Shown: positions 16,831 to 60,483 of the stretch, one piece after another | Numbering within the stretch: position 1 is the stretch's first letter | How the letters are laid out: each line of letters opens with the position of its first letter | Source: Nemertoderma westbladi | Taxonomy: Eukaryota > Animalia > Xenacoelomorpha | NCBI GenBank assembly: GCA_032718475.1 | Contig: JAUCBJ010006790.1 | Span: 1 to 64,000 of the forward strand | Direction of reading: 5' to 3' | DNA: 64,000 bases | The notes under the pieces: model-generated | What the model was told of the DNA's origin: nothing | The model's database searches: none | Seen by the model: the letters and a program-made list of their open reading frames with translations, nothing else | Position numbers and translations under genes: made by a program

Positions 16831-18377
16831 ATGAGGAATGGTCCGCGGCGTACAAATAAAAGGTATGGAAACACAGGGACCATTATAAATAAAACGATAG
16901 AAAGACTCGTCCAGGAAGCAGGTTCCTTAGGAGACCCACAAAATATCCAGGAGTTCTCAGCATTTCAAAGCTGGGTGAGGGGAGCCAACAACTCGATCAC
17001 GCATCCCCACCCCAGAACCCCGTTTTCTTCAACCCGTCAGTACGATGGCTATCTACATGTCGGAAGAAGAAGATGAGGATGACGATGATTTGGAAACGGC
17101 CGAAGAATGGGCCTGTTTCTTTGCTAACTGGGCCCCAAAACGAGAGAGAATCCCAGAAACTTTCTTATGTATATCCTGCAGCGAGATCCACACTGTCGAA
17201 TTCTGTCAAAAGTTCAAGTATGCAGACTTGATACCCCGCTTCCAAACCATCATGAAGCATCAAGGATGTTTCAAATGTTTGGGAACAGGTCATTACATGC
17301 GAGAGTGTGAAAAAAGATCATATTGCGCCATTTGTAGCGACAATCAACACCACACGTTATTACAAATCCCTGCAAATTTCGACTTCTCTACTCTCCCTTT
17401 TAGAGGGGAAATGAGGAGGGCAAGAAGCACTAAACAACATTAAATCTGGCAAGCCATCATACCACTCCGCATCCAAGGAAGGGGCAAAGAGAAATATAGA
17501 ACTTTATAACTATAGACCAATAAAATATATCACCAATGTTTCACATGTGGTAAACATGGTTCGAAAAAACTATGCGGTATTCGCAAAGGTGATCTCCATC
17601 CGGATCGCCCGACAGTTCGACTAATAGATCGCTAATGACTCTCGCGTTTTTGGACAATGGATCTGATGGAACTATTGTTGACAAAGAGTTTATCAAACAG
17701 CTCGGAATACAGTACGAACCTTACAAGAGGCTGATACAAACGATCAGCGACCATAGAGAAGTCGAATCTGGTGAGGTAGAGCTACAGATTGGCGGTCTAA
17801 TGCGTGGATATGAGGGCGTGAACCTCACAATACGAAATGCATTAGTTCATACAGATCTATGTGTACACTTTCGACAATCGGGGGACTTCGCGTCACTTAT
17901 ACAATTAGACAGAGCCGATGTGGACCTTTATTGTCCAAAGTTGGACGTAAATAAAATCAGCATTCTGATTGGACTCGACACACCAGTATTCCACATACCC
18001 ACAGGCGATATAGCCAGGTCCATCAGACCAAACGATGGGTTCTACGCCGAAAGGACAGTTTTGGGATGGACTCTATGTGGGATCAAAGAGGAAACTGTCG
18101 ACACATATACATATCTCCCAAAATGCCAGATTGAGAATAAACTGGTTAACATTAGACATTGTTTAACGACATTCGAAAGTCAGGATCTATTCCTAGAATC
18201 AGAAAGGACCCAGAAGGAGATGACGAGGTGCTTCAATTTCGAAACCCAGGAATTCGCGGAAAGGGATGAAGCACTGTCCGAGGAAGATCGATTCTGCATG
18301 AAACTCATGGACCAAGCCGAATTCAAGGATGGACATTGGAGATCTCCGATGCTGTGGAAAGACCCGGACAAAGTAAT
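16831..18377 (+). pseudogene. Old Bel/Pao retrotransposon C, 5' part: gag zinc knuckles, aspartic protease, pre-RT region
   Basis: CISCSEIH..C / CFKCLGTGH...C / CAICSDNQHHTLL; AFLDNGS; ERTVLGW; GHWRSPMLWKDPDK; the frame resumes at 44083. Confidence 0.85.
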
Positions 18378-19456
18378 TGTTCGCGCTTTTAAGACCTTTG
18401 GCAGTTTAACCCGCCAAATCTATATGTCTTCTAGGTTATAAATCTACTTTAGCCTAGGACAAGTATTCAACACCTATAATAATTCTAACATTAGCCGAAG
18501 CCAGTCTGTGCGCGACCATTCACCCGCTGGATATACCCGGGAGACTGGATTCGGATGCTTTAATTTGATTGCGGTGCAGGCCTACCGTACTATTCGATTG
18601 ATCGTTAATATATAATCTCTGACAAATATTATTCACTTTCGGGAAATATTAGCAGTTCCTTTAGGACGTGGCGCTCTATCTATTTAAACAGAGCTATGAC
18701 TTACACTATACACAACGGTATGTCTTATAGATCACCAAAGTGCATTCTTTAGGAAATGCTTTGTTACTCGGTCAAGCACACACAGACTATTGCACATAAC
18801 TGCACACTGAATTGCCGATATTCACTGATTTTAATCATATATAAAGAGAATAACAACCGACATTTGTAGGGCCTATTAAGTAGCATTGAACTCATTACAA
18901 ACCACGATAATGTATGTCGCAAATTGTTATATGTAACCGGTCTCTCTAACCTTAGTGTATCAAGAAGATTGGGGTTTCGGATCGTTATCAATATTCTTCC
19001 CAATAATAATATGTAAATGAACGATACAATTAACAACACAGTAAATAGCAGTAAATAATGCGGCGAAAAGCAGTTTACGTCAGGGTGCTTAATCAGGTGC
19101 CTGACAAGCAAGAGTACTTAACCAAGATAACAGTTTGATGATCTTATAATTAAAGACGCTCTAATGTTAGAAAACATTCCACGGCCGGTGTTCTTAGGCA
19201 TGGGGGAAACGTCAGTACTGAATCATGGGATTCTGCTGTACAGCTTTTACACAAAGGGAAAATCTCTGATTGGTCGAACTGACGTGGACACAGCTGATAG
19301 ATGTCGTCATTTGAGCTGAGCAGAACAAAGAACCAAGGCTCCGTGCAGAGGCTCCACGTGTACAGCTCAGCTATTAGCTGTCGTCATAGTAACTACACTG
19401 TTTCAAGAGTATTTCGGCTTTTGCGTCATAGAATTGCTAATTATGTCCGCTAAAGT
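18378..19456 (-). repeat. A1 3' LTR, truncated (lacks ~135 bp present in the other copy)
   Basis: Near-identical to 42866-43944. Confidence 0.88.
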
Positions 19457-33568: not shown

Positions 33569-34338
33569 TGCTGGACGCAACTCACTTCGTATGCATTCCT
33601 CGTATGCAAATACAAGGAAATGCATAGGAGCGGGGTTGTGGTGATTTGCGTTGAGTTTTGTCTGGTGGGTATCAAAACAAAATTTTATTTTCAAAATTTT
33701 TGGAAAATTAGAAAATTTTAAAAAATTAAAAGTGAACCCAAGACAATTCCAGACGCTGTGTATAGACGCGTTTTAGAATTCGTCTATAGATAAACAGTAA
33801 TTTGAAAAGTCGTGAAGCCTGGAAAATAGCATTTAGAAACCATGGTGACGGCTATATTACGTAGGAGTGTAAATTGAGTCTAGCAACTTCCACAGATTGG
33901 TGCCAACAGTGCAACTAAGGTGCTAAAGGTTAGTAGCACCAGAGGCGTACATGGACCCCACTCAGTAGTTTGCAGGATGTGTGATGTTCGATTATCAAAC
34001 CTGTGGGTTTGGTATAGTCGAGTATTGTGGCTATAGTCCTTTCTAACTACTGTAGTTTAGTACGAGTAATGGGAGTAGTTTGGGCATCAAAAAGTGAGTT
34101 GGTCACGGCCAGTTTATCTCCAAAGTTTTTGCGCTATGCATGGGAATAGGTTAGAGGATAGTTAGTTAGGAAGAGACGGGATCTAGAGAGTCGAACCTGA
34201 ACTGCTGGAAGGCGGGGGGGGGGGGGGGGGGTTCGGGAGGTCTGTCCTTCGGCGACATCTAACTGATTTACCCACAGTGTAGTTGGTTACGTAACGGCAC
34301 TTATTGGGATATATATATATGTATATACGCGTAACATA

Positions 34339-37300
34339 ATGGAGAGGGATATTAGAGCGCAACCGCGCAGAGGATTTACTGCCAGAGAGGAGGCGGAGCT
34401 ACCATTCGCGCGACCAGGATGTAAAGACTCTAACGTTTACTACCATGGGCGGTCCGTGATGGAGCTGAACGGGAAGTACAAACCAAGTTATGATAAAGAA
34501 TTACGGAGAGAAAGAATGAGAGCGTTGGGGGACCGGATGGAAGTCTTGCGGAGAGAGTATCGCACGCGGTATCCCTACGACTTCGCTTTGGACGTGTGCG
34601 ACATTAGCGCAGATCCGGACGAGGAAATCGCACGACTATACCATATGAATATGTATTTACGACATGAGGAGCCTCTACCTGCAGTCCGAGACCAGTTCGA
34701 CGGAATGCATCTGTATCGGAGGACTCGAGGTGAGGATCAGGAGACGCTGAAAGTCTTCAGCGTGTACAAGCTCTTCTACAAGTGTGGTGAATGCATGAAT
34801 AAACAGGACGTGGCGATTCCCGACCGATTAGACGAGCAACATCCGGAACCGATATTAACGCGATGTCCAGCTCACCAATTCCTTAGATACAACGAGGGAG
34901 GTTACCCGATGAGCAACCCGATGATCAGTATCGACTTCAGCAGAAAGCGACCTCCGAGACTCATTACGCCGACCATTACGACATTAGATCCGTATACGGA
35001 GATTAAACCCTGTTCGACACCCAGTTTGATAGAGACGGCAGCAGCCATTTCGCTGTACCGAGCCTACAAGGATCTAGAGGCGCGGCGCGAAGCGGCGCGG
35101 GACTCGGGTACCAAACCCGCGGGTTTGGAGCTCTCGAGTCCCTGGACTACGTTTACTTCACCTCACCGAATGAGAAGCCTCACGCCTGAGCATCAGGACG
35201 ACATAGACGCGTTGCGGCAGGAGGAGCGAGCGGCGAAGGCGAAAGAGTTATTTGAGAACAGGATAGCGGAGTATAATAAGACCGCGGATAGACATCAAGA
35301 GGAGACGAGGAGAGTGACCGGATTTGTTCCACAGGTCGTATCTCAACCCGGACCGGTGTATTATTCCGACGGCACCGAACCTGCGATATTAGTAGATCAT
35401 CCGGAGTCGCGAGAAGCGATACGATTCTTGCCGATGGTAAGAATGGCGGACCATTGGAACGTTGACTGTCTACGGGAAGTTTTATGCGCGAAGTTCTTGC
35501 GTGATGTCCCAATGCAGATCACAGATTATGACACGTTGGATAAGATTGGAGCTCCGGGGAAGGAGAGTAAGCTATTCGGATGGTTGGATAAGTACATCAA
35601 GGTATGGGTCGCGGTGGCTACATTCCCAGACGACGAGGAGGTAGACCAGATGTGGCTGAGGAGGAAGGGTTCTTATACCCGATATGATGACCACAAGGCT
35701 ATCGAGCGCATGTGGACCCCATCAGACGAGATTCAGCGTCAGTGGAGGAAGACGGAGGAATCGCTGCAGGATTGGAGGGTGATGTTCTACGACAATGAAG
35801 GAGGGTCCCATCAGGAATGTTTGACCAGCAAGTGTATTCAAATTCGTGCGGCCGATGGTGTGACTCATGTGTTTATGCGTGTGAGGGCGGATCGAGAGAG
35901 ACCGGAGCCCATCATAACGACACAATATCGGAAAGGGAAGGATCCTAGGGAACAGATTTTGGAGGTATGCAGGCGAGGAGGTATGCACGGAGCGGAGCGT
36001 ATCGACGCCAGGATGTTACCAAAGAAAGTTAGAGAGGCTATTCTCAACCAAGATTACGTCAAGGTGGGATCGGGAGTCCAGAGCGATTTGGAGAGCGACT
36101 TCAACGCCATGACTGATCTGGAAGATAGATTGCCGAGACCGTTTGTCGACACCAAGCTATTGTTGCTATGGGCACAGGATATTGGAATTTATAGGGAGTA
36201 TCCCAACTCTGCCAAGACTGGTATGGGCTTTATAGCACACTTGTTGTATAATTGGGACTTTAAGTTAAAGACGCAAAAGAAGTATGAGGAGGCGTATGGC
36301 GAATACAACACTCCACCGGGAGCGGAGTTCAAATCCCACTTCAAGCGGCAAGCGTTAGTGTATTGGAACATTTGCGCGCCACCCCGTGCGTCGCTACAAT
36401 ATTATTTGGTGCTTGAGTCGAACACGGTGACTTGTTTATTAGCGGATATCGTTGCGCGAGTTTTGAAGTGTCATCCATTGGTATTTGGAGGAGATCAATA
36501 CGTTCGCTCGAAAGGGGGAATCCAATCCGACGTGATGAAGCGTTTCTTAACCCCGTTCTTCAACCAATCGTTAGAGAATACGTCGATGATTAGGAGAGGA
36601 TTAGCGATATTCGAAGGAGTATATCGACAGAACATCGGAGATTTGGGAGACCGACCGTCGATGGAATATCCGACGCCAGAAGCTTTGGAGAAGTGGTTCG
36701 GGAATCAAACCCGCGGGTTTGGTACTCCCTTCCACTCGGAGGCTGATAGACCTGTTAAGGAGGGCTGGCCGGAAACGTTAGTAGAGGTGTTCGGAGTAGA
36801 TCTTCCGGTGGAGAAGACATATCCGAAACGAACGCGGGAGGAAATATTGGAGATAGAGGACAAGGGCGAGGATGTTTACTTTGTTCCGGATCGACAACCG
36901 TTGACTGGAGAGGACGACATCGTATTAGACATTGGGAAGGAAGGAAGTGCGAAACCGATTGGAGACCTCATATACGAGAGGGCCTGGTTTCCACAAGCGC
37001 GTAGGTGCAAGTTGTGCGGCAGCACAAGGCACAATCTAAAGTCGTGCGACGCGGTAGTGGAGGCGGCACATAAAGTCTGTCGTTGGTGTAATGAGACCGA
37101 CCATTCGTTTCACACGTGCACCGTCTTCATTTCTCAATGTGGATATTGTGGGGTAAAGGGACATCGTAGCGCGAGATGTCAGCTGCGAGATGATTCCTTT
37201 CAAAACCATAGCGCTAACCTACTTCGTGAGATGTTAGACAAGTGGGAGAGTGTGGCGGATTACCATATTCAAGCGCAGATGCGTTGGTTACCATTTAAAG

Positions 37301-37779
37301 CGGGATATGGGTTTTGGGCGGTAGACCCATCGCATGTTGCGTACGAGCCATATCTACAATCGCTACCACAATATCAGGAGCTCATCCTAACTGCTCAAGA
37401 CCTTCCACAAAACACTGGAGTTATCGTAGTTCGAGAGTACTTCAGACAATTGAACATGGACAATAAGTACACATGGAACTTCGTTGCTATTTGCGATCGC
37501 ATCACGAAGGGTGTATTTACGGAGACTAGAAAAGTGGTACGCGCGCGAGGTGATTGGAGGATGGCGGCTATACAATACCGCAACGAATTCTTGTTGACTC
37601 ATGTGCCAGTGGGTTCATTGACCGCCGAGAGGATACAGGAACAAAGGATCGCAGCGACCACAGCGACGACCGCTGGAGCTCAAGGCTCGCGGAAAGAACC
37701 AGGAGGAGGGGTCCAAGACAAGCGTCAAGTCAAGGACGATCACTACCATTCGATACCTAAAGAGGTGAGGTCTCTATAG
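34339..37779 (+). CDS. Extra ORF of B (1146 aa): DnaQ/WRN-EXD-like 3'-5' exonuclease domain plus three CCHC zinc knuckles
   Basis: VMFYDNEGG (ExoI DxE), LPKKVREAILNQDYVKVGSGVQSD (ExoII), FVDTKLL, KTGMGFIA, LQYYLVLE (ExoIII-like); CKLCGSTRHNLKSC, CRWCNETDHSFHTC, CGYCGVKGHRSARC. Confidence 0.75.
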   Translation: MERDIRAQPRRGFTAREEAELPFARPGCKDSNVYYHGRSVMELNGKYKPSYDKELRRERMRALGDRMEVLRREYRTRYPYDFALDVCDISADPDEEIARLYHMNMYLRHEEPLPAVRDQFDGMHLYRRTRGEDQETLKVFSVYKLFYKCGECMNKQDVAIPDRLDEQHPEPILTRCPAHQFLRYNEGGYPMSNPMISIDFSRKRPPRLITPTITTLDPYTEIKPCSTPSLIETAAAISLYRAYKDLEARREAARDSGTKPAGLELSSPWTTFTSPHRMRSLTPEHQDDIDALRQEERAAKAKELFENRIAEYNKTADRHQEETRRVTGFVPQVVSQPGPVYYSDGTEPAILVDHPESREAIRFLPMVRMADHWNVDCLREVLCAKFLRDVPMQITDYDTLDKIGAPGKESKLFGWLDKYIKVWVAVATFPDDEEVDQMWLRRKGSYTRYDDHKAIERMWTPSDEIQRQWRKTEESLQDWRVMFYDNEGGSHQECLTSKCIQIRAADGVTHVFMRVRADRERPEPIITTQYRKGKDPREQILEVCRRGGMHGAERIDARMLPKKVREAILNQDYVKVGSGVQSDLESDFNAMTDLEDRLPRPFVDTKLLLLWAQDIGIYREYPNSAKTGMGFIAHLLYNWDFKLKTQKKYEEAYGEYNTPPGAEFKSHFKRQALVYWNICAPPRASLQYYLVLESNTVTCLLADIVARVLKCHPLVFGGDQYVRSKGGIQSDVMKRFLTPFFNQSLENTSMIRRGLAIFEGVYRQNIGDLGDRPSMEYPTPEALEKWFGNQTRGFGTPFHSEADRPVKEGWPETLVEVFGVDLPVEKTYPKRTREEILEIEDKGEDVYFVPDRQPLTGEDDIVLDIGKEGSAKPIGDLIYERAWFPQARRCKLCGSTRHNLKSCDAVVEAAHKVCRWCNETDHSFHTCTVFISQCGYCGVKGHRSARCQLRDDSFQNHSANLLREMLDKWESVADYHIQAQMRWLPFKAGYGFWAVDPSHVAYEPYLQSLPQYQELILTAQDLPQNTGVIVVREYFRQLNMDNKYTWNFVAICDRITKGVFTETRKVVRARGDWRMAAIQYRNEFLLTHVPVGSLTAERIQEQRIAATTATTAGAQGSRKEPGGGVQDKRQVKDDHYHSIPKEVRSL

Positions 37780-39681: not shown

Positions 39682-41873
39682 TGTTACGGTATATGGCGCT
39701 GTATCCATATTATTAGTCATCATGCAGTATGTAATATTAGTCCGTTATGCAGTATGCAATATTAGTCCGTTATACTGTACGTAATATTAGTCCATTGTGC
39801 AGCATGATATTTTAGATAAGGCATAATAACGCAGTGGTATTTAGGTAGGGAAATCAAAACGCCCATATATTTGAAACCATCCATTTTGTATAGTATGTAG
39901 CCCTACCTACGTAATTTTGTATTAGGATATATGTAGATAGTTCCAGGGTAGCGAGTTTATTCGGACCCTGGATTTTGTGCTTGCTGATATTAGTTTGATA
40001 GGGCTAGCATATAGGGACGCCGTCCTGGCCATTCAGCAGCCAGAGACGTGAACCATTACCATATATGGTAATAATTTGAGCAATAGGGCTACAATCCGGC
40101 CTCCTTATTGGATTAACTGCTTCCAGGTTGGTCTAATGCTAGCATGGACTGGAGAGCCAATAGGAGAGCGATTGAGTCACCCTATTGAATCATCCCATCC
40201 GGATCACCTATAAATTGGCGGTGTGCCGGTAGAGCCTATCAATCGATTCAACCTTCACTGCTGTTGTACTTGCTGAGCTGTCTCTATTCAATTTTGACGG
40301 ATTTTAGAGTATTTTTGCAATTTGATTAATTTCTTGAAATGATTTGCTAGTGCGATTACTCTTGCTTGTGTTTCTCAATTAATTCCTTCGATTACTGCTA
40401 ATTACAACTGAACTATGATTTCTACTTTTGATTAATGGTTCTATGTGATTCTTTCCTGCGCAATAATCCTAAGGGATTTCTGAGACTGTCAGACTTTGTG
40501 ATTTGCATGCGCCGCTACGGTAGCTATTAGCGTAATGGAGGGCTAAGGCGCCAGCGGGCGGTGGGCACATCGGGGGGTTGGGCGACTAAGGGAGAGCGGA
40601 GGATTCAAAGCGAGCAACGCTGGCATGGGGTCACCGTTGCGGTCGGGAAGTTAACGCTGTGGTACGCAGACCAATCGCCGGTACGGTAATTAGGGGGCTG
40701 ATGATCCAGGTTTCGTCTCTATTTAGTATTAGGGGGGCAGGAATCAGGTTAGTTAGGAGTCCTATATGTACCCGGGAGAGGCCTGCACGTATCATAACGT
40801 TTCGAACGTTGAGCGTGTAGTACGAATAGTGAGTCGCATAATTGTGGGCTATACAGTAGTTAACTGCATAATTGCGAACTGTGATTGCTGACGCTGATTG
40901 GTGTGTTACTGAAGTGTGCCTATGATTGTGAATGTTTAGGTAGGCGCTCTTTTCTCTTTGATTGATTTCTATTTCTTAGTTACAACAATTAGTTACTGAT
41001 TAGGTCAAAGTAATACGGCAATTTAGGCTATTACTAGCGAAACCTGTTGCGTGATAAATTAGAATTACGTATTCTGGAACTCTTAGTAATTAGTACGCTG
41101 TTAAATATTTGTGACTGTAATTGATTAGTAAAATTAAGAATTAGTACGCAGCATAGCGGAGAGTAGCTAAAGTAATAATTAAGAGTACTGTAAACTATTC
41201 GCGCTGAGCGGTTATTTGCATTAGCGGACAATCAGCTAGAACGCACTATTCGGTACGCACGAAACGCTAGTGATTTGCTGGCCTAAAGCCAGCTGCAGGC
41301 AATTTTAGACCCAGAGTGGTACTATCCACGAGAGACAATTACTGTACCATTTTTGATATTTTAAATATTCTCGCATTCACACATTACGTTAGAGAAACCC
41401 CCAGTATTCGCGATTAGAAAAGACGTAGGTAATAGCGTGCTTTAATAGTGATAGAATTAGGCGTAAGAATACTCTGAGTGCAAGGCCTCTCGCACTCGTC
41501 TTAAGTAAGCTTAGGGAGCCGACTCGGGTTTATTGTTTTGGTTATTCCTGCGTGGCTCATAGATTCGAACAGTTAGCTCTCTATTGAGCAATCGGTAGAG
41601 AAAGGAACAAGCGATTTTGCAGGAGTTGTGTAAAATTAGTAAATATATTAGCGGACGGCAGATTAGCGCCATCCAACGGTAAGTAGCGGTTTTGTATTTA
41701 GCAACCTTTACAATTTAGTAATATCACGCTCCTGATCCCCTTTACTTAACAGTAGAGCAGTCTTTGTGTCTTATTGGTTAGGCGAGAGCTCATTAGGTTG
41801 GCAGAAGGATATTAACGGGTATTGGTCTGTTCAACAGTTCTGCTGTTAGTATAGAGGTCGCGGTTGTTTATCA
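39682..41873 (+). repeat. Element B 3' LTR
   Basis: Copy of 19502-21693; followed by GTAGG, which matches the A-family leader sequence (compare 58642). Confidence 0.87.
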
Positions 41874-41932
41874 GTAGGGATAAACTTGGGGATATGAATG
41901 TTGCGAATAATCGCATAAACTCTGAATAATAA

Positions 41933-42510
41933 ATATTACGCTACGCACACAGACTACTCAAACAAAATGCAGACCAAATACTGACAGACTACTATCAAGC
42001 CTAAACAAACTACGGTATATGCAGACTCCGAAATGGTTAGTTAGTATGCGTTCTAACCGAGTAGTACGACTTATTCTTTCAGAGGGGGTTTACCTCACAG
42101 CACTGGAAGCCCCTACGTTCCTAACGGGCACTTTATCGGACATACACTCTACACACAACGCAATCCTTCAGACCTAACAACAGCCAGGCAAAATCCAGCC
42201 TACAAATTATCTAAATAAGAAATATTACGCTACCCGTACAGACTACATAAACAAAATACAGACCAAACGCTGGCAGACTACTATCAAGCCTAAATAAACT
42301 ACAGTATATGCAGACTCCGAAATGGTTAGTTAGTATGCGTTCTAATCTAGTAGTACGACTTATTCTTTCAAAGGGGGTTTACCTCACAGCACTTGAAGCC
42401 CCTACGTTCCTAACTAGCACTTTATCGGACAGATGCTCTACACTACACACACTGCAATCCATTCAGACTTAACAACAGTCAGACAACTATCCAGCCTACA
42501 AATTATCTGT
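41933..42510. repeat. ~289-bp tandem duplication in the A1 leader
   Basis: ATATTACGCTAC at ~41933 and ~42222; single copy in A2 (~58702). Confidence 0.75.
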
Positions 42511-42865
42511 ACAATCTGGGCAGGCTTACACGGCCTTCTACTCAATATCAACTTACAGGCAAATAAAACTAACAGAAATAAGTAAACTATACAAAGGAAT
42601 GAGGGGTGATCAATCCCTAATCCCCTAGCAGCCTACAATATACAATATCACAATCGAAATAGTACTGCTGTACCTGTACTGTTGTAAGTACCGGTCCGGG
42701 TGATCAGGCAGTCAGGCCTACTGGTCACCGGTCGACCGGTACTTTCGACGACTCGATTGCTTACGCCGCAATCAGAAGTTTAACAAACTGTTATTGTTCT
42801 TACCAGAACAATATTAAACTGTATTTATTGCCTACACTGCAATCAAGAATTTTACAAACTGTTAT

Positions 42866-44079
42866 TGTTCGCGCTTTTAAGACCTTTGGCAGTTTAACCC
42901 GCCAAATCTATATGTCTTCTAGGTTATAAATCTACTTTAGCCTAGGACAAGTATTGAACACCTATAATAATTCTAACATTAGCCGAAGCCAGTCTGTGCG
43001 CGACCATTCACCCGCTGGATATACCCGGGAGACTGGATTCGGATGCTTTAATTTGATTGCGGTGCAGGCCTACCGTACTATTCGATTGATCATTAATATA
43101 TAATCTCTGACAAATATTATTCACTTTCGGGAAATATTAGAAGTTCCTTTAGGACGTGGCGCTCTATCTATTTAAACAGAGCTATGACTTACACTATACA
43201 CAACGGTATGTCTTATAGATCACCAAAGTGCATTCTTTAGGAAATGCTTTGTTACTCGGTCAAGCACACACAGACTATTGCACACAACTGCACACTGAAT
43301 TGCCGATATTCACTGATTTTAATCATATATAAAGAGAATAACAACCGACATTTGTAGGGCCTATTAAGTAGCATTGAACTCATTACAAACCACGATAATG
43401 TATGTCGCAAATTGTTATATGTAACCGGTCTCTCTAACCTTAGTGTATCAAGAAGATTGGGGTTTCGGATCGTTATCAATATTCTTCCCAATAATAATAT
43501 GTAAACGAACGATACAATTAACAACACAGTAAATAGCAGTAAATAATGCGGCGAAAAGCAGTTTACGTCAGGGTGCTTAATCAGGTGCCTGACAAGCAAG
43601 AGTACTTAACCAAAATAACAGTTTGATGATCTTATAATTAAAGACGCTCTAATGTTAGAAAACATTCCACGGCCGGTGTTCTTAGGCGTGGGGGAAACGT
43701 CAGTACTGAATCATGGGATTCTGCTGTACAGCTTTTACACAAAGGGAAAATCTCTGATTGGTCGAACTGACGTGGACACTGCTGATAGATGTCGTCATTT
43801 GAGCTGAGCAGAACAAAGAACCAAGGCTCCGTGCAGAGGCTCCACGTGTACAGCTCAGCTATTAGCTGTCGTCATAGTAACTACACTGTTTCAAGAGTAT
43901 TTCGGCTTTTGCGTCATAGAATTGCTAATTATGTCCGCTAAAGTACACATACAGAATGAATGGCCTTTTATGTCCACTAAAACACTGGTACAGTAAGGAA
44001 ACGGCTTTTATGTCCGTTAAAACACCTACAGAGTACTTTACGGGGAAAATAACCAGCTAATTCCGCAAAAGCTTTTACA
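42866..44079 (-). repeat. A1 5' LTR (1214 bp)
   Basis: On the minus strand reads TGTAAAAGCTTTT...AAAAGCGCGAACA. Confidence 0.88.
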
Positions 44080-44082
44080 GTA

Positions 44083-45130
44083 ATGGTGGACAATTCAAGC
44101 ATGGCCCTGAATCGCCTTAAAGGAATCCTGAAAAGGCTTAATACCCAACCTGACCTTAAGGACCAATATAATGAAGTAATGGCTGGGTACTTAAAAAACG
44201 GATTGACAGAGTTGGTACCAGATGAAGAGATTAAAGGATCCTCCAGAACATACTACTTACCAACACACTACGTGATAGAAAAGCGTAAGGCTGGTAAGAT
44301 GAGAGTCGTTAATGACGCCACGGCCTCCTTCCAAGGTGAATCCCTACACAGCCAGTTATACACCGGACCAAACATCTATAGCAACCTGGTTGGCGTATTG
44401 CTTAGATTCAGGCTCAGAACAAGGTGGCTTTTACATGCGACATCAAATCTATGTTTCATCAGGTACGCACACTAGACAGAGACTCTGACAGCTTGCGGAT
44501 ACTATGGACCAACAAGACACTTAATATCTCAGAAATAAACAGCCTCACGCTGAATGATGTTGACATCTTAATAATGGTGGTACGTATCTTCAGTGCAAAA
44601 GACTCGCCAGTCGTGTGCAGTGATATGATTAAGAAAACTGCGGATATGCTGGAAGATAAATATGATCCCAGTGAAATCAGTCGTCACGCCAACTGGAAGA
44701 AATCGCAAGCGTTGGCAGCACACTGGTGGAGGGTATGGTTGCACGAATTTCTGATAACACTCAGAACCCGCCGGAAATGGAATCACATTCACCGAATCAT
44801 CGCGGTTGGAGATATGGTGCTTGTCAAAGATGAACTGAAAGATCGTGTTCATTGGCCTGTGGCGCGTGTTACCAAGATTTTCCCCGGAAAAGTCGGTCTC
44901 ACCCGCACCGTGATGATCCAAACATCAAAGGGCCACTACGATCGCCCGATCCAAGCTTTATGTTTACTAGAAGCAGTTTGTGATGACGTTGTAGAGTGCC
45001 CTGCCAAGGGCCACTACGATCACCCAATCTAAACTTTATATTTACTAGAAGCAGTCGGTGATGACGTTGTAGAGTACCCTGAAAAGAAACACTACGACCA
45101 CCAAATCCAGACTTTGTGTCCTCTCAAGGA
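44083..45130 (+). pseudogene. Old Bel/Pao C, 3' part: RT N-terminus fused by deletion to the integrase C-terminus, ending in three 78-bp repeats
   Basis: ALNRL..LKRL, YYLPTH, KMRVVNDA, LLRFR, DIKSMFHQV, then WWRVWLHEFL..R.KW, WPVARV, YDRPIQALCLL; CACTACG at 44934, 45012, 45090. Confidence 0.85.
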
Positions 45131-47265: not shown

Positions 47266-49104
47266 TGTTCGCGCTTTTAGACCTTTAGCAGTTTAACCTG
47301 CCAATTTTAGTTGTCTTTTTGTTTATAAATCGACTTTAGCCTATATCGATTATTTAATGTATTCTTGTATTCTTGTATATATATTTAGCGATTTAAAATT
47401 CACACGGTAGAACTCGTAGAGCACACCAAATTAAGTACATAAACCTAAAAACTGCAGTATATCAAATAATTAAGTACGGGCCTACAGTTGTAAAAATTAC
47501 GCAAATAAGGCACAAAATGCACATAACTAATAATGAGAAAAAAAAAAACATTATAGTAAAAATATACATTGTATACAAATTGTGCAAAAACTGGCTAATT
47601 CTTCTGTTTAAATGGACAATGCAATGAAAGAAATGTAGTCCATTTAATTTATTTTAATACTTGTACCTTAGTTAGGGAGTTTGACTGGATAGGTCTCGAG
47701 TCAGTGTATCCAGGCGAGCCTGGACAATCTGGGACGGTGTAAAGATATGCATCAAGATGCTTTTTAAAAGTCTCCAGTGCGCAGCCTGTCAAGTCTCTTA
47801 TATGTTTTGGGATGGTGTTAAATAATTTAGGTCCAATAACACAAAAACTGTTGTCTATAAGAGAGGAGACGCGACATGTAGCCTTACTTGCAAGGGACGG
47901 TATGGTACAAAGTCGACCTCTGCGGATGTTTTTTGTAGATTTAATTTTATAGGTTAGATCTGAAATATTTGGAACTCTATTTTCGATAATTTTCCATGTA
48001 TATATTATTATATACAATATATTAATGTAATGAAGTTACATCCACCGAAGCCAGTCTGTGCGCGACCATTCACGCACAGTTAAGGGAGACTGGATTCGGG
48101 TGCTTTGACGTTATTGCGTTGTAGACCTACTGTATTATTCGATTGATCGTTTACTATATAATCTCTGACAATATATTTACTTTTGGGGAAATATTAACAG
48201 TTCCTTTAGGACGTGGCACTTTAAGTATAAAAACAGAGTTAAGACTTATACTAATCACAACTAGATGGCTACTGAGTTTCGTAAAAAGCGCATTCTTTAG
48301 GAGATGCTTTATTAACCTTCACACTACTTCACACTACTTCACACTACTTCACACTGATCTGCCGACCATCACTGAATTTGATCATATATAAGGAGGATCG
48401 CAACTGACACATGTAGGGATTATGAAATAGCATTTAATTCACACATAAAACAACTATAATGTAAGTCGCAGTTGCTACCGGTAAACCTGTTCCTCTAACC
48501 TTCAGTAATCAAGAAGATTGTGGGGTTTTATGATTATTCATCGGTATTCTCCAAATATATCAGCAATATACATTAACATAACACCAATTAATAACAGAAG
48601 CAAATAATGGGGTGAACAGTCAGTATGTGTTACTTATGCAGAGTTCCATGAGCAGCAATGTTCAATATGTGATTCGCGTGATGCGTTAATAGTTTTACGT
48701 TCTTGTAATCAAAGCCATCAGATCTTTAGGCCAAAGTCTGAAACTTCCACAATCAGAAGTACAGAAGACTTCCAAGCAGTTCTCTCGCTCAGAAAGGTAA
48801 ACAAAGACCGTAATGCATTGCGCAGTTTTACATAGGCCCTTGTTCAACATAAAGTGAAAATCGCTCTGATTGGCTGAGTAGAACAAAGAGGTTCCACATT
48901 TACAGAAAATCAGCTGACAGATTTCGTCATCTGAGCTCCAGTCTTTTAGAGTATTAGGCGCATTGCGGCAAAAATGACTTGTTATGTCCGCTAAATCACC
49001 TACACGGTACATTGCGGAGAAAAATGACTTGTTATGTCCGCTAAAGTACCTACACGGTACATTGCGGAGAAAAATGACTTGTTATGTCCGCAAAAGCTTT
49101 TACA
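47266..49104 (-). repeat. A2 3' LTR interrupted by a LINE fragment; ~48-bp triple repeat in U3
   Basis: Matches 59324-60483 once 47362-48029 is removed. Confidence 0.88.
47362..48021 (-). mobile_element. 5'-truncated CR1-like LINE 3' end with (TACAAGAA) tail and 8-bp TSD
   Basis: YIIIYTWKIIE..VPN..RRGRLC..SF...GPKLFN.IPKHIR..FKKHLDAYLYTVPD.P; TTAATGTA at 47354-47361 and 48022-48029. Confidence 0.8.
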
Positions 49105-49182: not shown

Positions 49183-50736
49183 TTAGTCCTTCTTACGTGA
49201 ACGGCATTTATGCAGTTTTTTGAGGCTAGCAAGAGTCCTTTTCTCTTTGGAGCGAGCCACTTTACTAGGAGGGCTATAACTCCTGGGTGAAGGGTGCAAT
49301 ACAATTGCATCAGAAGGTTTAGGGTTACGGTCGGTGTATCCGCTGGTCGAGCTACCCGGTTGATCGATATCAACCTCAGTGGAACGAGGTCGAACAACCT
49401 TCAGAGCGCGTTTCAAGACAGCAGCTCTTACTGGTCCCTGACGAGTCGTCTGCACGAGAGTGGTAGGTGGACCGTGAGTAGTGAGAAATTTCCTCGGTTT
49501 GATGGTTCTTTCCAACTCGCGTTCTCGGGCTCTATCGGAATCGATATGCTTCTCCTCGAACTGATTTTCCTCCGCTTGTCGTTGAAAGCATTCATCCAAA
49601 ACTCTTGCAGAGAGTAGGGTCGTCCAAGTTCGATATCTTCTTAGAGATTCTGGATTTCCCGATCGAACTGAGATAAAGCTAATTCGTTTACCGCTTGGAC
49701 TTGCTGCTGCAATTTACGTTTCTCTAAACAATCGTAAGTTCCTTTTCCGATCTTTTGTCGAATAGTGTCTAACGCGTTTCGTACAACTCTCTCCTCCACC
49801 TCGGTGACAGGTTGTATAGGATTAAACCGGGACGATTATACAGGTTGAACAGCGATATTAAATGTCTGCGTCCCAATCCGGCTAGGTAGGATGGGCGAAT
49901 ATCTAGGGAGCCCACAACCGGAGTGCCACCGACTAATTGTTCGGGTAACACTAGATCTTTGAACAATGAGTACAGTTCAGGAGGATCCGTCATACTATTA
50001 GGATCAAGAGTCTGAGGTCTCACCAGGGAATGAGGAGGTCTGACCGAGTATTCCGGAACTCGGATCATCGGTTTATTTAAGGATCGTTTGAGTCGAGCGA
50101 GCGCGGGTGATACGTCGAACAAGTTTCGCTCGAAACTCCCGTAAGTATAACGAGTAAAACTGTGTTTAACGCAACGTCTCCGCGGAGGTTTATGTCTTTC
50201 CATTTGTTGGTTGGGTCTAGGGCATTCGTCGCAATAATACCAAAGACGCACGTCTTGTAGGGGAAACGCGGGTGATCTTTCTCCAGTTTTACAATGTTTC
50301 TCTCAAGAATTCCAAATATACGTTGAAGTCACTGCGCTTATCTGGTTCTTCAACGTCTTCTCTTTCGAGTCGGTTTCGAATATAATTTTTCGTGTTCGAT
50401 TCTCAGTTTTTCGTTCCGACTCCGCTGGGTATGATATTTAAATAGGATCATTTCCCTTTCGGTGTCTACATCGTCCGTATCGTGTAAATCGACAGGATGA
50501 CCAGTAGTTAAGAAGTCCATATACGTACCATTACGATGCATATAGCGAGTGGTGAATTTTCTATAGTCCAATTCACGCGTGAGTTGTTCCTTTGACATTG
50601 GCGGTTCGATATAACGGCCATCATCCTCCGTAGTGGGTTGACTAGCGTCGCCGCGTATTAAACTATCAACAAACGCTTGCAATGGTAGGGTATATCGCTC
50701 CCTGATACCAAGATCATCTTCTATCAACTCAGTCAT
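49183..50736 (-). other. Three successive unassigned ORFs (128, 160, 138 aa) in the 3' accessory position of A2
   Basis: Same strand as gag, between the AT-rich spacer and the PPT; protein-like composition; one carries CDEC...C..H. Confidence 0.4.
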
Positions 50737-52373
50737 AGCTGCTATATGAGTTTATCGATATTATAATTAATAATAATTTAGGCTAGCGGTTGTCGCTGCC
50801 TCCCCCTCAATGCCCCCGGACAGCGCAAGCTCCTCAGCGCTGATGTACTGTCGCCGCTGTGTCTCTCGCCAACGTAGTAGCTACACAACACCAACAACAA
50901 CCAGCGCGAGTCACTCCACTGTCCGTCCCAAGGGCTTAGAATTACTTCAGGTTCTTGCTACAGAGGTAGGGCAACTTTCACAACTGCGACTCGCTACTGT
51001 AAACACACTTTAGTAGTAACATTCACCTATAAATGCACAAATTCCACACAACTGTCACAAATTGTACACATTCGGGCCATTTGTCCATTAGTCAAGTGCC
51101 TTCCAGAATGCCACGTTATTATTATGTATCCCTGGATACTAGCAGTGTGCTATTTATTTCGTATGCTATTCAGTGGGGCAAGCTTTCTGTTGTTCTTTTA
51201 ACTCGCTTCTAATTCTAGCGTGGTTGTTGCTATGGTGACGTTATGGAAAGCTAGCAGTAGAATTAGGGTAATTCTCATGCATACAGATCTGGGATGCTAT
51301 TTAATAGTAATTCTTTAATTGTCAATATTCCCCTTTATACATGATTTTATGAATTTTATCGGCTATTGACTATATATTGGAGATTCTCTCGCACTAATAT
51401 ATTTAATAGGGTGAATCTCCGCTCCCATGATCTATTAATTAATGGAATTTTGGGAATGTTATAAATTGTATAAAATGACAATTTATCAAATTCATGAGAG
51501 GATATGAATTTAAATTTATTCCCGTAAATTTTATTATTTAATATTAAAATAGACACAATTTTATTCCAGAGCATGTCTGGGAACTAGGATCCTTAATTCT
51601 AGGAAATTTGTCTTTTTAAGAGTATCGGTAAGTGCTACGATATCTTAATCGACCAGAATTTTAAAGGATCTGAATTTTAACAGATTTTGGATTTCTAGAT
51701 TTTCTTGGTTTACAAACTCCTTAGAGTTTATTTATATGCATTTACTCTATTATAACATTTGTTTTAATAGATTTTTATAAATATTAAATAATTAATATTT
51801 AAGATGGGCACCGAATTATTCCAGAACTTGTCTGGGGACGTTAACCACTGATTCTAGAATTTTGTCTTTCAAGTATATCGGTGGGTGCCGCAATATCTTA
51901 ATCGACTAGAATTACAGATGGTCAAAGGGTTTAACAGATTTATTTTGCGTTTTACGCTAATGTTAAAGGGACATCACACTACTATATGTATTATTTAATA
52001 TACGTTATGAGAGCAATATTGCAAGGAGCAATGTCAGTGAGAAGAGGCAAGTCGTTTCCAAGGTCTACCCAGAGCTTGGTTTAGCCGAGACACGAGGATC
52101 TGAACTTTGCATTCCTAATACTTATTATATATATACTTATTATACTAATAATTATTTCTCGCCATTGCACTAAATATATAATGTTAAGTAATTAAGTAAT
52201 AAACACGAATATATATATTGCACTAATCTACTAAATAATCGCTAAAATAATATTCTACTAAATAAAATTAAAGAAAACGATTATAATAAAATTACGTAAT
52301 AATACATACATAAATATAAAAATAATAAAAACAAATATAAAATAATATAGTCACACACCCACTCCAGGCGCTG

Positions 52374-53929
52374 TCACGTTGAGGAGTCCCTAGATGTTTG
52401 TTGGATTAAGGAGGTGGTCGTGGGAAGAGTATCTTGCCTTCCACAGTCTACGGACAGTTCTCGGTCTCTTTCCAGTAAACATAAACGACCAACTGGGCGA
52501 TTGAGTTGTTGTGTTTCGAATACAATTCCAGGTTTCTTCTTCGTCCTAGAATAGTGATGATGGAAACACCAAGTCCGGCTTTTGGTGAGGAGATCAATTG
52601 TATTTTCCTCATCGTATGGCTGGTTAATATCGTCGTTATCTGAGGAGTATGGTGTTCCCTCAGTTGTGGTCTCTCCCTCACTGATTTCTTCTTCCCATTC
52701 ACTCACCTGATGTACCTTTTCGTTAGGTAGTCTTTCCATGAGTGTTCTACGGGAAGGTCCAGCGAAGTACCAACCTACTCTCGTTCTTCCCGCATATGTT
52801 TGTAATGGTTGCGGTCGAGCAGGCCGTTTTTCTAATGTCTCTAGCGCCTCATGCGCATTTTGGCCGATCAATATCTGTACCCCTGGGTAGTCGGTGTTGA
52901 ATCTAGGGATATCATGCTGCTGGGTAAAATGGTCTTCATCCCAGTTGTAAGGTTCCACTTGGCTGGTAGCAAAGTTCTTTATCGCCACCATTTTTACTGA
53001 CCTTATACTATGTTCGCCTAGTTCATCCTGGGGAGTGGACAACGCGCCTACATAGTAGTCTGTAGCTACTGTGGATTTCCAAACCTGCATAATTCCTGAA
53101 AGGTTCAACTTAGTTCGGAACTTGGGTTGTCCAGCAAAGATGTCTTCGGCTAGTTCTTTGTCGATGAATGTACCTGTGCTGCCGGAGTCAAGGAGGGCGT
53201 TTACTATTAAACTTTTCCCTAGCCCGTGGACTCTCAGCTGCACTACAGGGAATTCCCGGAGTCCGACGTTGGAAGCCGGCGCTTTCCAAGATGGTTGCTG
53301 GTCCGGACTAGTCAGTTGTGCTTCCTTATCGGTATCAGTCTCATACGTAAGTGCTCGATACACTGCAGTGTTTATCATATGACAGGATTCGTTTTCGTCA
53401 GAGAATTCGTCCGTGTAGAATCCTTCCATCTCAGAGCTGTGGTCAGTGTCGTTCACATCACTGAATTGGACATGTAGTTCGGGCTCACTTACCTGACTCG
53501 TGCGGGTTCTTTCAAATTCTGTGTGCAGCAAGATATGATGTTTCGCGCCGCACTTAGCACACCTCGCACCTGAATAACAGGTCCGCCGTTGGTGTCCTTG
53601 TCTGAGACAATTATAACACAACCGCTTATCCCACATGACATTACGTCTATCCTTTAGGGATTTCTTCAAGAATTCATCACATCCACTTAAACGATGGGGC
53701 CCGTCGCACAATGCACATTTGGGTTTGATGTTACTTACTTTAACTTGTGTTGTGTTGTGCACCCTTGTTCTTTCTTTGGGCTTTCTTCCATGAATTCTCT
53801 TAGGAGACGTAGGAGGAGTTGTTACCTGTTCTCTCCTGTCACTGGTTATATATTCTATCTTCTGTTCTCTCCTGTCACTGGTTCGAGACTTAGATTTACT
53901 TACGTCTTTCCTCGGTTTATTGACATAAT
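52374..53929 (-). pseudogene. A2 gag C-terminus (3 Zn knuckles) and aspartic protease
   Basis: CALCDGPHRLSGC, CYNCLRQGHQRRTC, CAKCGAKHHILLH; ALLDSGS; ILIG; RTRVGW. Confidence 0.88.
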
Positions 53930-54179
53930 TAAATAAATTGGAGATCACCTTTAATTACAGTTGCAACAGCTCATCTCCAATTTATTTAATTAATATCACC
54001 TGGCAGCAATACTCGAGCTGAATATTTATTTATTTGTACTTCCCTCCTGTTTCACTCTAGCATACTTGAGGCCGTTAGGTCCACTGTTAGAGATAGAATA
54101 TATGCAACTTAAGACTGCCCGTTCAATAGAAGTGGATTAGGTGGGACTGTGAGTGTCAGGGGCTAGTGGCTGAGCTGGT

Positions 54180-54227
54180 TAGCGCTACTGATGAGGCCTG
54201 TTAGGCCGAAACGTACGTATAGCGCTG
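54180..54227 (+). ncRNA. Type I minimal hammerhead ribozyme, copy 1
   Basis: Stem I UAGCGCUA/UAGCGCUG, CUGAUGA, stem II GGCCU-GUU-AGGCC, GAAA, short palindromic stem III ACGUACGU; predicted cleavage after GUA at 54219. Confidence 0.92.
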
Positions 54228-54520: not shown

Positions 54521-54568
54521 TAGCGCTACTGATGAGGCCTGTTAGGCCGAAACGTACGTATAGCGCTG
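54521..54568 (+). ncRNA. Type I hammerhead ribozyme, copy 2
   Basis: Identical core to copy 1; predicted cleavage after 54560. Confidence 0.92.
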
Positions 54569-54908: not shown

Positions 54909-55201
54909 GTTCAACCCCCGGTGACGCGCTCTCATTTTTTCCACTTCTGAACAAACCCATTATATTACACCTTTAATTACAGTTGCAACAGCTCATCTCC
55001 AATTTATTTAATTAATATCACCTGGCAGCAATACTCGAGCTGAATATTTATTTATTTGTACTTCCCTCCTGTTTCACTCTAGCATACTTGAGGCCGTTAG
55101 GTCCGCTGTTAGAGATAGAATATATGCAACTTAAGACTGCCTGTTCAATAGAAGTGGATTAGGTGGGACTGTGAGTGTCAGGGGCTAGTGGCTGAGCTGG
55201 T

Positions 55202-55249
55202 TAGCGCTACTGATGAGGCCTGTTAGGCCGTAACGTACGTATAGCGCTG
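55202..55249 (+). ncRNA. Hammerhead ribozyme, copy 4 (probably inactive)
   Basis: Core GAAA mutated to GTAA at 55230-55233. Confidence 0.75.
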
Positions 55250-55309
55250 GTTCAACCCCCGGTGACGCGCTCTCTACTATTCTTCTGAACAAACCCATTA
55301 TATTACACC

Positions 55310-57374
55310 TATTGACATAATAAGATCTTTCGGTGTCCTTACTGCTGTTTTCATCGTAGGACGTCGTCTGACTCCCACAATCCGTATAACACACTGGTGT
55401 TACCTCTCTCCTAGTAACGGGTTTTTCACTTACCTTACTTTCAGGAGTCTTCTCTCTAGACTGTTTTAGGAGTTGTAATCTTACCTCTCTGTTTAAGAAT
55501 GATAGAAGGTCCATCATGGTTGGATCTCTATGTTGTTGGTCCATCAAATAGAGAACCTTTTTGTCCCAGCGAGTACCTACTCCATCCTTTGGCAAAGTTG
55601 ATGCTAAGGCTCCTACAACCATAGAATTCTGGTATTCATGAGACTTACCCAACCAGTCTAACTGTCTACAGATCTCCTGAATCTCGTCGGAAAACTCTAT
55701 AATCCCGCTGCTAAGAAACTTTCGGGGCGCCATTAATTTCGCATATAAATACCTAGCTATGTTAGTCCTATTACCATACCTGATGTTTAGTGTATCCCAA
55801 ACTTGTCTTAATCCATCTGGATGTCCAATAAACTTTAACGCCATTAACTTGGGAGGTCCTTCCAAGCACTCGATGAGGAATCTAAGTTTCTCTCCGTTGG
55901 ATAGTACAGAGTTCTGTATGTTATCTTTGTAATATTCATTAAAAGGTAACCATTTCATCTCATCTCCATTGAACTTGACGATCTCTCCCACCTTTACCGC
56001 TTGACTGGCTTCAGTTCTAGCCATTTGACGCGTAAAACTTTCTTGGGCCATCGTATTATTTAATATCGAGTTATCAGTATATAAATTTCTCGGATTAGGA
56101 TCAGGTCTATATGGAATATCATTATCAACAGGTTTATAATTACCCTTAATAGGGTTCACTATAGGAGTTTCTACTTCACTAGCAGTATAGATGCGTGTAG
56201 GCTCCACACCTTGCGCATGAAATACTTCAGACCTAACAGGTTGACACATTGTTACAGGGGGTGGTGGTATACCCTTTTGTATATTTACCAATTTATCGCG
56301 TTCTAACGCGATACTCTGCTGCACTTCTTGCAACTCTAACCTACCCTCTCTTACTGTTCCCTTTAACTGCTGAACAGTCCCCTCCAACTCTCGGACCTGT
56401 TGGGAGGAATGTACATGATGTTCCCCATCTGCCCGAGCAGGAGATCCATCACCCGCCGTCGCTCATCCACCCACTCTACCGCCGAAGCGGGAGCCACCAA
56501 CATAGTAGCGGGTAGACGAGGGACGACGGGCGACAAATCGTTGATGTCTTGCTCGGCGTCCAGGACCGGTATTGATTCAGGGGCTGCTCTACTGGGCACA
56601 GGTAGTTTAGTACTGTGCAAAGGGAATTTAGAGTTAAGTTCTGGAAGTACAGGGGTCTCTATTTACAGAGGGGGTGACTTCGAAAACAGGCCTAATTATT
56701 TCAGGCTCATCTACTATAGTAGGGAGTCTGTCTACTCTAATAATTTGGTCTGTGGGTTCATGATTACCTAAGTCTACACTAGCCAGTTGCCTTCTCACCG
56801 CAGGAGGTAAATTAGGTAACTTCTGACGGTGTGGCGTTCTTCTACGTCCGCTTGAACGAGATTTATTACCTCTACCTTCGGGATCTGTTGTATCACCTTC
56901 ATCGGAGGAGGCAAATCCCTGTCTTCTGGGAGTAGATCGACTCAGTAACTGCATCTGAGTAGCTGTCCTTTGTTTCTTCAAATAATCTTGTTTCGCCTGA
57001 AGGTTTTCCAGCTCTTGTTGGGTAGTCGCTTCAGGCGCCTTCCGTTCTGCTTCAGCCACTGCCGCTTTCCTTTCAGCCTCTGCTGCTGCCGCTTTTCTAT
57101 CAGCCGCTGCCGCTTTCCTTTCAGATTCTGCCGCGGCCGCTGACCTTCGGTCTTCTATTTGCCGTTTCTTTAATTGTTCCTCTTGTTCCATTGCCATGAG
57201 GATGCCATGACGGTGCTGTACTAGCCTAGGGTCTGACACTACTACTGTAGGGATGACCTTTCTTACAGTAGGATGGGACTTGGACTTCGGTCTCAGATAT
57301 TCTATACTTCTATCTGATTCACAGACTGTTCTTTCTAGGAGACTATCTGACAGTGTTTGCTTTGTGTCAGCCAT
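55310..57374 (-). pseudogene. A2 gag N-terminus and core (DUF1759-like), frameshifted twice
   Basis: KFNGDEMKWLPFNEYYKDNIQNSVLSNGEKLRFLIECLEGPP..L..RYG; upstream coiled-coil ORF 57374-56634. Confidence 0.85.
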
Positions 57375-59323: not shown

Positions 59324-60483
59324 TGTTCGCGCTTTTAGACCTTTAGCAGTTTAACCTGCCAATTTTAGTTGTCTTTTTGTTTATAAATCGACTTTAGCCT
59401 ATATCGATTATTTAATGTACTGAAGTTACATCCGCCGAAGCCAGTCTGTGCGCGACCATTCACCCACAGTTAAGGGAGACTGGATTCGGATGCTTTGATA
59501 GTGATTGCGGTGTAGACCTACTGTATTATTCGATTGATCGTTAATATATAATCTCTGACAATATATTTACTTTTGGGGAAATATTAACAGTTCCTTTAGG
59601 ACGTGGCACTTTAAGTATAAAAACAGAGTTATGACTTATACTAATCACAACTAGATGGCTACTGAGTTTCGTAAAAAGCGCATTCTTTAGGAGATGCTTT
59701 ATTAACCTTCACACTACTTCACACTACTTCACACTGATCTGCCGACCGTCACTGAATTTGATCATATATAAGGAGGATCGCAACTGACACATGTAGGGAT
59801 TATGAAATAGCATTTAATTCACACATAAAACAACTATAATGTAAGTCGCAGTTGCTACCGGTAAACCTGTTCCTCTAACCTTCAGTAATCAAGAAGATTG
59901 GGGGGTTTTATGATTATTCATCGGTATTCTCCTAATATATCAGCAATATACATTAACATAACACCAATTAATAACAGAAGCAAATAATGCGGTGAATAGT
60001 CAGTATGTGTTACTTATGCAGTGTTCCATGAGCAGCAATGTTCAATATATGATTCGCGTGATGTGTTAATAGTTTTACGTTCTTGTAATCAAAGCCATCA
60101 GATCTTTAGGCCAAAGTCTGAAACTTCCACAATCAGAAGTACAGAAGACTTCCAAGCAGTTCTCTCGCTCAGAAAGGTAAACAAAGACCGTAATGCATTG
60201 CGCGGTTTTACATAGGCCCTTGTTCAACATAAAGTGAAAATCGCTCTGATTGGCTGAGCAGAACAAAGAGGTTCCACGTTTACAGAAAATCAGCTGACAG
60301 ATTTCGTCATCTGAGCTCCAGTCTTTTAGAGTATTAGGCGCATTGCGGCAAAAATGACTTGTTATGTCCGCTAAATCGCCTACAAGGTACATTGCGGAGA
60401 AAAATGACTTGTTATGTCGCTAAAGTACCTACACGGTACATTGCGGAGAAAAATGACTTGTTATGTCCGCAAAAGCTTTTACA
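59324..60483 (-). repeat. A2 5' LTR (1160 bp)
   Basis: On the minus strand reads TGTAAAAGCTTTT...AAAAGCGCGAACA; related to but diverged from the A1 LTR. Confidence 0.9.

Follow-up and report, generated by a model that had tools for sequence, protein, structure and literature searches.

Two related BEL/Pao-type LTR retrotransposons in the Nemertoderma westbladi assembly, A1 and A2, carry at the primer-binding site (PBS) position, directly after the 5′ LTR, a short sequence that is perfectly complementary to a site inside their own LTR. This PBS/LTR-site complementarity is real and conserved by compensatory change between the two elements. On balance, the sequence evidence favors both elements probably priming minus-strand DNA synthesis with their own RNA rather than with a tRNA.

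Two related elements in a nest of BEL/Pao retrotransposons

The window, i.e., the whole 64,000-nt stretch of DNA analyzed, is a nest of BEL/Pao LTR retrotransposons, and the named relatives of its single long pol come from marine invertebrates (~36–44% identity). The features defining A1 and A2 are as follows.

42866..44079, minus strand: A1 5′ LTR, 1214 bp, with TG...CA ends
18378..19455, minus strand: A1 3′ LTR remnant, first ~135 bp missing, with the self-complementary site at 19127-19137
18373..18377 (left copy) and 44080..44084 (right copy), unstranded: A1 target-site duplication GTAAT
60483-47266, minus strand: sister element A2 as a whole, target-site duplication GTATT
59324..60483, minus strand: A2 5′ LTR, 1160 bp
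47266..49104, minus strand: A2 3′ LTR, split by an insert; 0 extra bases separate the purine tract from the TG start of the LTR
55185..56462, minus strand: A2 gag piece with DUF1759 (E 1.5e-13)

A1 has a ~1 kb leader next to its 5′ LTR and is inserted within the start of the RT region of a further BEL/Pao element. Since its 5′ and 3′ LTRs differ by only 8 mismatches over 1078 nt, the insertion is young, and because another element, B (19456-41875), replaces its interior, A1 is without coding sequence. Its assignment to BEL/Pao follows from 78% identity to A2 over 1378 nt of LTR and leader, the gag of A2 carrying DUF1759; the position of this gag on the minus strand also confirms the orientation of A1. 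Typical BEL/Pao features are present, including paired LTRs with TG...CA ends, 5-bp target-site duplications, and a purine tract, along with the DUF1759 gag, a zinc knuckle, and a protease in A2, whose knuckle/protease ORF matches BEL/Pao polyproteins at E 2e-20. Within the window, neither A1 nor A2 retains an RT, RNase H, or integrase core, and homologue searches with the A2 gag and the A2 protease returned no match. A1 is a young BEL/Pao-type LTR element whose coding region has been lost.

Several other structures were observed in the same nest. In A2, four 341-bp tandem copies are inserted between the gag and protease ORFs (53946-55310), and the long 3′ region (49183-50751, minus strand) carries short ORFs, of which 49183-49713 and 49769-50302 had no Pfam match. 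Both A2 (52374-53954) and a further element, C (16979-18377 plus 44085-45032), contain in-frame-looking internal deletions that fuse protease or early-RT sequence to the integrase C-terminus, i.e., several non-autonomous derivatives lie in one window. Element B, on the plus strand, also belongs to BEL/Pao and has LTRs measuring 2.19 kb or more. The purine tract and the 46 nt preceding it form part of its left copy, and the element lacks a target-site duplication, which suggests a tandem or recombined arrangement that removed the A1 interior. There are two candidate ends for the B LTR: 2 nt past the one at 21729 begins a 12-nt sequence complementary to 21284-21295, by itself weak evidence, and TGG follows the one at 22223. 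Downstream of the B integrase, at the position of an env-like gene, lies an extra ORF of 1170 aa (34267-37779, plus strand) with no Pfam match and no convincing PDB match. The B leader also hosts a Crypton-like insertion (~22458-25555) with DUF3504 and a tyrosine recombinase at 22970-24409, 68-nt imperfect inverted ends, and a 100-bp tandem array.

The PBS position is complementary to a site in the same LTR

The sequences proposed to pair are located as follows.

42855..42865, minus strand: A1 PBS position, 11 nt ATAACAGTTTG, no TGG, directly abutting the LTR end
43615..43625, minus strand: A1 self-complementary site (candidate self-primer), CAAACTGTTAT, LTR position 455-465
43630..43634, minus strand: 5′ arm (TAAGA) of a second, 5-bp helix, pairing with 42844..42848
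42844..42848, minus strand: 3′ arm (TCTTG) of the second helix
59313..59323, minus strand: A2 PBS position, TTAATAGTTTT; pairing extends to 12 nt
60066..60076, minus strand: A2 self-complementary site, homologous to the A1 site by alignment; 3′ LTR copy at 48686-48696

An initial annotation of this DNA, made from the sequence alone, had reported that the A1 LTR is followed by ATAACAGTTTG instead of TGG, and that CAAACTGTTAT, an 11-nt perfect complement, recurs in both LTRs. The coordinates check, and both copies of the complement were recovered, at 43625-43615 (LTR position 455) and at 19137-19127 in the 3′ LTR. The additional TCTTG/TAAGA pairing that it had described can likewise form between 43634-43630 and 42848-42844, with one of the pairs being G-U. 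Pairing with a mature tRNA end requires TGG, which first occurs at +61 (A1) and +58 (A2) after the LTR, and the 18-nt PBS of the ICTV profile, complementary to the 3′ end of a host tRNA, is absent in both elements. ARAGORN detected no tRNA gene in the window, and Rfam returned no match at E up to 1 over 41800-44200.

The A1 site is the sole perfect complement, within the LTR, of the 11 nt that follow the LTR. Among the 117,228 11-mers of the window located outside the LTRs, 50 complement the A1 LTR (4.3e-4, both PBS copies counted), the mononucleotide expectation for such a complement being 6e-4, and across 340 scanned positions of the A1 leader, an LTR complement of at least 10 nt is reached only by the PBS and its downstream copy. 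The geometry is primer-like, with the 3′ base of the LTR site pairing with the first base after the terminal CA of the LTR, and A-U pairs dominate the duplex, with 3 and 1 G-C pairs among the 11 in the two elements.

Compensatory change and conservation around the site

The PBS sequences of A1 and A2 differ at positions 1, 5, and 11, and all three differences are compensated in the element's own LTR. Each PBS pairs with its own LTR site at 11/11 positions, compared to 8/11 for cross-pairing and 3–5 of 11 for slid registers, and the chance of the same three positions changing to complementary letters is ~2e-4, with within-family covariation here being a comparison of two elements, A1 and A2. 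Conservation is also focused on the site: the 25-column block that contains it is identical at 18/25 columns between A1 and A2, versus 7–11/25 for seven upstream blocks and 3/25 for the next block downstream.

Contigs from public DNA runs indicate that the A family is abundant and diverse, although these pieces are too short for phasing a PBS with its LTR site. A single variant contig, spanning 43463-43699, has 13 of its 15 substitutions, along with both of its gaps, in the 30 nt immediately 3′ of the site, and is free of substitutions in 43615-43655. At 43614, the A1 3′ LTR and all contigs listed share a letter that differs from the A1 5′ LTR; the twelfth pair seen in the A1 5′ LTR is private to that LTR, and the shared letter implies that, in the family, the duplex extends no further than the LTR boundary. 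One contig joint of low depth leaves out 50 nt (43565-43616) from the 3′ edge of the site, with a side of 23 nt and not at a GT-AG boundary.

A duplicated motif in the leader

The leader next to the PBS includes three further conserved or repeated features.

42827..42843, minus strand: small conserved hairpin (ATTGC, 7-nt loop, GCAAT) immediately downstream of the PBS, with a second copy after the duplicated PBS
42783..42799, minus strand: duplicated LTR-end/PBS motif, 71 nt downstream, intact in A1 and degenerate in A2
42799..42804, minus strand: splice-donor-like GGTAAG in a hairpin loop, conserved in A2 (59265); a putative donor

The repetition of the LTR-end/PBS motif further into the leader, also noted initially, corresponds to a 17-nt copy at 42799-42783 with a period of 71 nt, and the GGTAAG hairpin is located between the two motif copies. 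A ~70-nt unit composed of LTR end, PBS, and small hairpin occurs twice in tandem in A1 as well as in A2, so that the duplication predates their split. The second copy still matches the LTR site in A1 (-19.9 kcal/mol) but not in A2 (-9.5 kcal/mol); since the A2 copy has lost complementarity, the repeated motif is unlikely to be required as a second PBS and probably does not function as one. Some low-depth contigs lack 70 nt at the duplicated motif, and in one of the distant relatives described below, an element of the spliced type (L018:1067-1135), the motif at the PBS position is likewise tandemly duplicated, with a period of ~52 nt.

RNA folding of the LTR and leader

Folding of the LTR and leader, the check suggested by the initial annotation, recovered the duplex in part. 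RNAalifold on the A1+A2 consensus picks the long-range PBS/LTR duplex together with the second helix, and the energies of the isolated duplexes are -18.3 (A1) and -23.1 kcal/mol (A2). Single-sequence folds did not reproduce this for A1, with a duplex probability of 0.0 in 9/9 folds (and 0.72 for the duplicated copy in 1/6), and were mixed for A2, in which the three folds starting 12 nt upstream gave 0.93, 0.91, and 0.22 and the other six at most 0.12, i.e., a strong duplex in 2/9; the folded regions span 800–1100 nt, a range at which predictions are weak either way. That whole-region folds form the duplex so unreliably counts against the self-priming reading. In A1, the LTR end can instead pair locally with the PBS in a hairpin that competes with the long-range duplex. 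One flanking helix was found, its LTR arm being upstream of the site, as well as a conserved hairpin near the end of U5, whereas a conserved structure in 43565-43255 was unsupported (z +1.5 in A1, -1.3 in A2).

Distant BEL/Pao relatives from metagenomes

We fetched 70 metagenome loci with a BEL/Pao alignment, six of which had LTR ends fixed within the contig by two-LTR comparison (the LTR end of L010 was set by eye); 33 others were scanned without a fixed end, and the remainder lacked 5′ sequence or were unused. A self-complement of 11–15 nt, starting 2–3 nt after the LTR, was detected in five of the six fixed-end elements, and for each of these five, 0/60 null windows reach its score. In four of them the complement exists only across a GT-AG junction inside the LTR (12 nt in L002, 11 in L010, 12 in L011, and 15 in L032), while L013 has a contiguous 11-nt self-complement; the sixth element, L063, has no self-complement and shows TGG at +6. 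Among the 33 loci without fixed ends, 12 match versus 2.5 expected, of which some are probably chance: L009 and L052 repeat the L011 junction and are not independent, and L022 and L054 have null rates of 0.4. The splice-motif filters behind both the fixed-end and the 33-locus counts were chosen after a first look at the data. A tRNA-type PBS is also absent in 5/6 coding BEL/Pao relatives.

A1 and A2 are of the contiguous type. A splice-junction primer was considered for them and rejected, the best spliced complements being 0 and 6 nt versus contiguous ones of 11 and 12 nt. Pairing starts at +1 in both, compared to 2–3 nt after the LTR in the relatives, and the number of extra bases at the purine tract fits this PBS offset roughly (0 and 0 in A2; 2–4 and 2–3 in relatives), although L026, a test case for this idea, gave no match.

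In a knuckle/protease tree of 32 rows (L070 gave no match), A2 sits on a long branch outside the metagenome elements, paired with B without starred support. With A2 so placed, the tree cannot order the contiguous and spliced forms, and the distance of A2 from the metagenome elements makes the analogy with them a loose one. The 21-nt family motif had 0 matches in the metagenome contigs, and scans of viral contigs found no relative. Seven prokaryote genome bins (L064-L070) hold contigs with BEL/Pao elements, which are probably animal host DNA that was binned in.

Start-site motifs and alternative readings

Two sets of promoter-type signals flank the site.

43757..43763, minus strand: NF-Y-type CCAAT box, ~136 nt upstream of the site (~177 nt upstream in A2)
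43248..43331, minus strand: conserved TATA-like box (43331), TCAGT, and AACAAA, past the site; competing candidates for core promoter and poly(A) signal

Motif evidence on where transcription would start points both ways. The CCAAT box is conserved within an otherwise diverged stretch upstream of the site. TATAWAW boxes of A1 and A2 occur only downstream (LTR positions 749/714, and again 978/934), where ~300 nt past the site TATA is followed, 33 nt later in both elements, by TCAGT and then by AACAAA (A1) or AATAAA (A2). This order of TATA, TCAGT, and poly(A)-like signal is the textbook U3-R-U5 layout and would place the site in U3. In that case the genomic RNA would contain the site only close to its 3′ end, and pairing of the site with the PBS would circularize the RNA or connect two packaged RNAs; a cut could still yield an element-derived primer, from the 3′ end or in trans, though not Tf1-style. 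Favored by the conserved downstream signals with their identical spacing and by the lack of a TATA box upstream of the site in A1 and A2, such a placement in U3 is nonetheless unlikely, if still a credible alternative. A cut in the 3′ U3 would separate the R needed by strong-stop DNA, so that a second intact RNA would be required, and a consensus NF-Y box is conserved upstream of the site. Relatives with a clear TATA box also argue against it: in three of the four with a TATAWAW call (L010, L011, and L032) the box precedes the primer, which is thereby placed in R, the TATA of L004 falling inside the intron, and the distance from the TATA box to the downstream primer exceeds 100 nt in spliced relatives. 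Moreover, Tf2 is reported, in the accessible part of PMC5341516, to use two start sites, one of them downstream of its self-primer, so that a downstream promoter is compatible with an upstream one also being used.

The remaining alternatives concern the nature of the duplex itself. It could be regulatory or structural (in packaging, dimerization, or as a switch hiding the PBS), with a host RNA, e.g., an internal tRNA fragment, as the real primer. Half-tRNA priming is described for several Ty1/copia lineages (in the accessible text of PMC6317226) and the ICTV lists tRNA priming for the family (PMC8742986), yet a single host RNA would need to match both PBS versions, which differ at 3/11 positions, as well as the unrelated PBS sequences of five distant elements. 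The sites are, in addition, very AU-rich, and the duplex begins at most 3 nt from the LTR end in 7/7 positive elements, precisely where a primer end must lie, which together make a host primer improbable. Finally, short AU-rich matches do occur and the site is only 11 nt long, so that the complementarity might be functionless, arising by chance or from a single inverted copying event at the DNA level. The compensatory changes already make this unlikely, and with the 4.3e-4 chance of such a complement and the recurrence of self-complementarity with different letters in distant elements, we consider it very improbable. The reading implied by the initial annotation, namely a self-complementary PBS with tRNA-independent priming, is strongly backed by the compensatory changes between A1 and A2 and by the five distant elements; its assumption that the 5′ part of the transcript includes the site would hold only for a start upstream of it, on which the motif evidence is split.

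Proposed mechanism of self-priming

For the preferred reading, priming by the element's own RNA, the simplest form is a Tf1-like chemistry with an internal primer, in which start, cut, and priming are all predictions. The transcript would begin behind the conserved CCAAT box, anywhere from a few tens of bases to ~100 nt before the site, which would thereby fall within R. Because one arm of the second helix comes from bases preceding the site, the site itself is probably internal to the RNA. The site would fold back ~750 nt onto the PBS, probably helped by Gag, and the RNA would be cut just 3′ of the site by the RNase H of the RT, by analogy with Tf1; the sharp drop in conservation 3′ of the site offers indirect support for cleavage there. 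The new 3′-OH would be extended through U5 and R, and the strong-stop DNA would then jump to the 3′ R. If replication follows the general scheme for LTR elements, the next PBS would be copied from the primer during plus-strand synthesis, and this would account for the joint change of PBS and LTR site. As its coding region is lost, A1 would need proteins in trans.

Implications and comparison with known self-priming elements

Extending this reading beyond A1 and A2, we tentatively propose, as a possibility slightly less probable than its opposite, that, across marine animals, much of the family Belpaoviridae has given up tRNA priming in favor of an internal self-primer excised from the element's own RNA, with many lineages assembling this primer by host splicing at an exon-exon junction in the LTR and A1/A2 being intron-free. 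If true, self-priming would have arisen independently in a third superfamily, using a primer other than the first bases of the RNA and with splicing acting as a replication switch. It would change the textbook description of a whole Ortervirales family and bring Tf1-type cleavage of an RNA duplex to a third superfamily. Self-priming would also explain why PBS-based annotation can miss such elements, and self-primed elements would escape control by 3′ tRNA fragments. The contiguous form found here, beside splice-junction relatives, provides a direct way to ask how the mechanism evolved, and the claim is easy to test since the primer end is predicted to the base.

Self-priming of BEL/Pao elements did not turn up in our literature search, whose scope excluded Repbase Reports, GyDB, and subscription journals, so that an earlier description there is possible. 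The main text of PMC3118150 has 0 occurrences of primer, PBS, or tRNA, PMC554778 has no PBS passage, and the accessible parts of PMC3601003, PMC3286476, and PMC5443660 add nothing on BEL/Pao priming. The ICTV profile assigns Belpaoviridae an 18-nt PBS for tRNA-Arg or tRNA-Gly and calls their replication poorly understood (PMC8742986). A1 and A2 share LTR, target-site duplication, and gag features with this family (genus Semotivirus; BEL, Pao, Tas, Suzu, Sinbad, Dan, and Flow lineages), and their LTRs are at the upper size limit of the profile (1.2 kb), but they are without the 18-nt tRNA PBS, which is descriptive in the profile (PMC8742986).

In the accessible portions of the corresponding sources, self-priming is described for Tf1/sushi, Tcn1, and TAR copia elements (PMC6317226, PMC4600332, bioRxiv 2022.12.06.519325), being a prediction for the Tcn1 chromoviruses and the TAR (Houba, Osr-1) plant Ty1/copia elements (PMC6317226). 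For the latter two, the criterion is a complement of at least 10 bp located 0–5 bp after the LTR, an arrangement also found in A1 and A2; Tcn1 and TAR belong to other superfamilies and hosts, and the accessible text of the same source mentions no splice-junction form (PMC6317226). Tf1 and Tf2 of Schizosaccharomyces pombe and Tj1, i.e., the Tf1/sushi Ty3/gypsy chromoviruses, have no tRNA PBS, and A1 and A2 resemble them in that ~11 nt after the 5′ LTR are complementary to an LTR site, with helices beside the central duplex (accessible parts of PMC7175516, PMC4600332, bioRxiv 2022.12.06.519325). In contrast to Tf1/sushi, whose primer is the first ~11 nt of the transcript and whose three-duplex "pretzel" draws its flanking helices from LTR sequence downstream of the primer, the second helix of A1/A2 uses sequence upstream of the site, the loop is ~750 nt, and distant BEL/Pao relatives form the site only across a splice junction. 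Since Tf1/sushi elements encode Ty3/gypsy chromovirus proteins whereas A2 carries BEL/Pao domains, A1 and A2 are, as judged from these domains, not members of the Tf1/sushi group.
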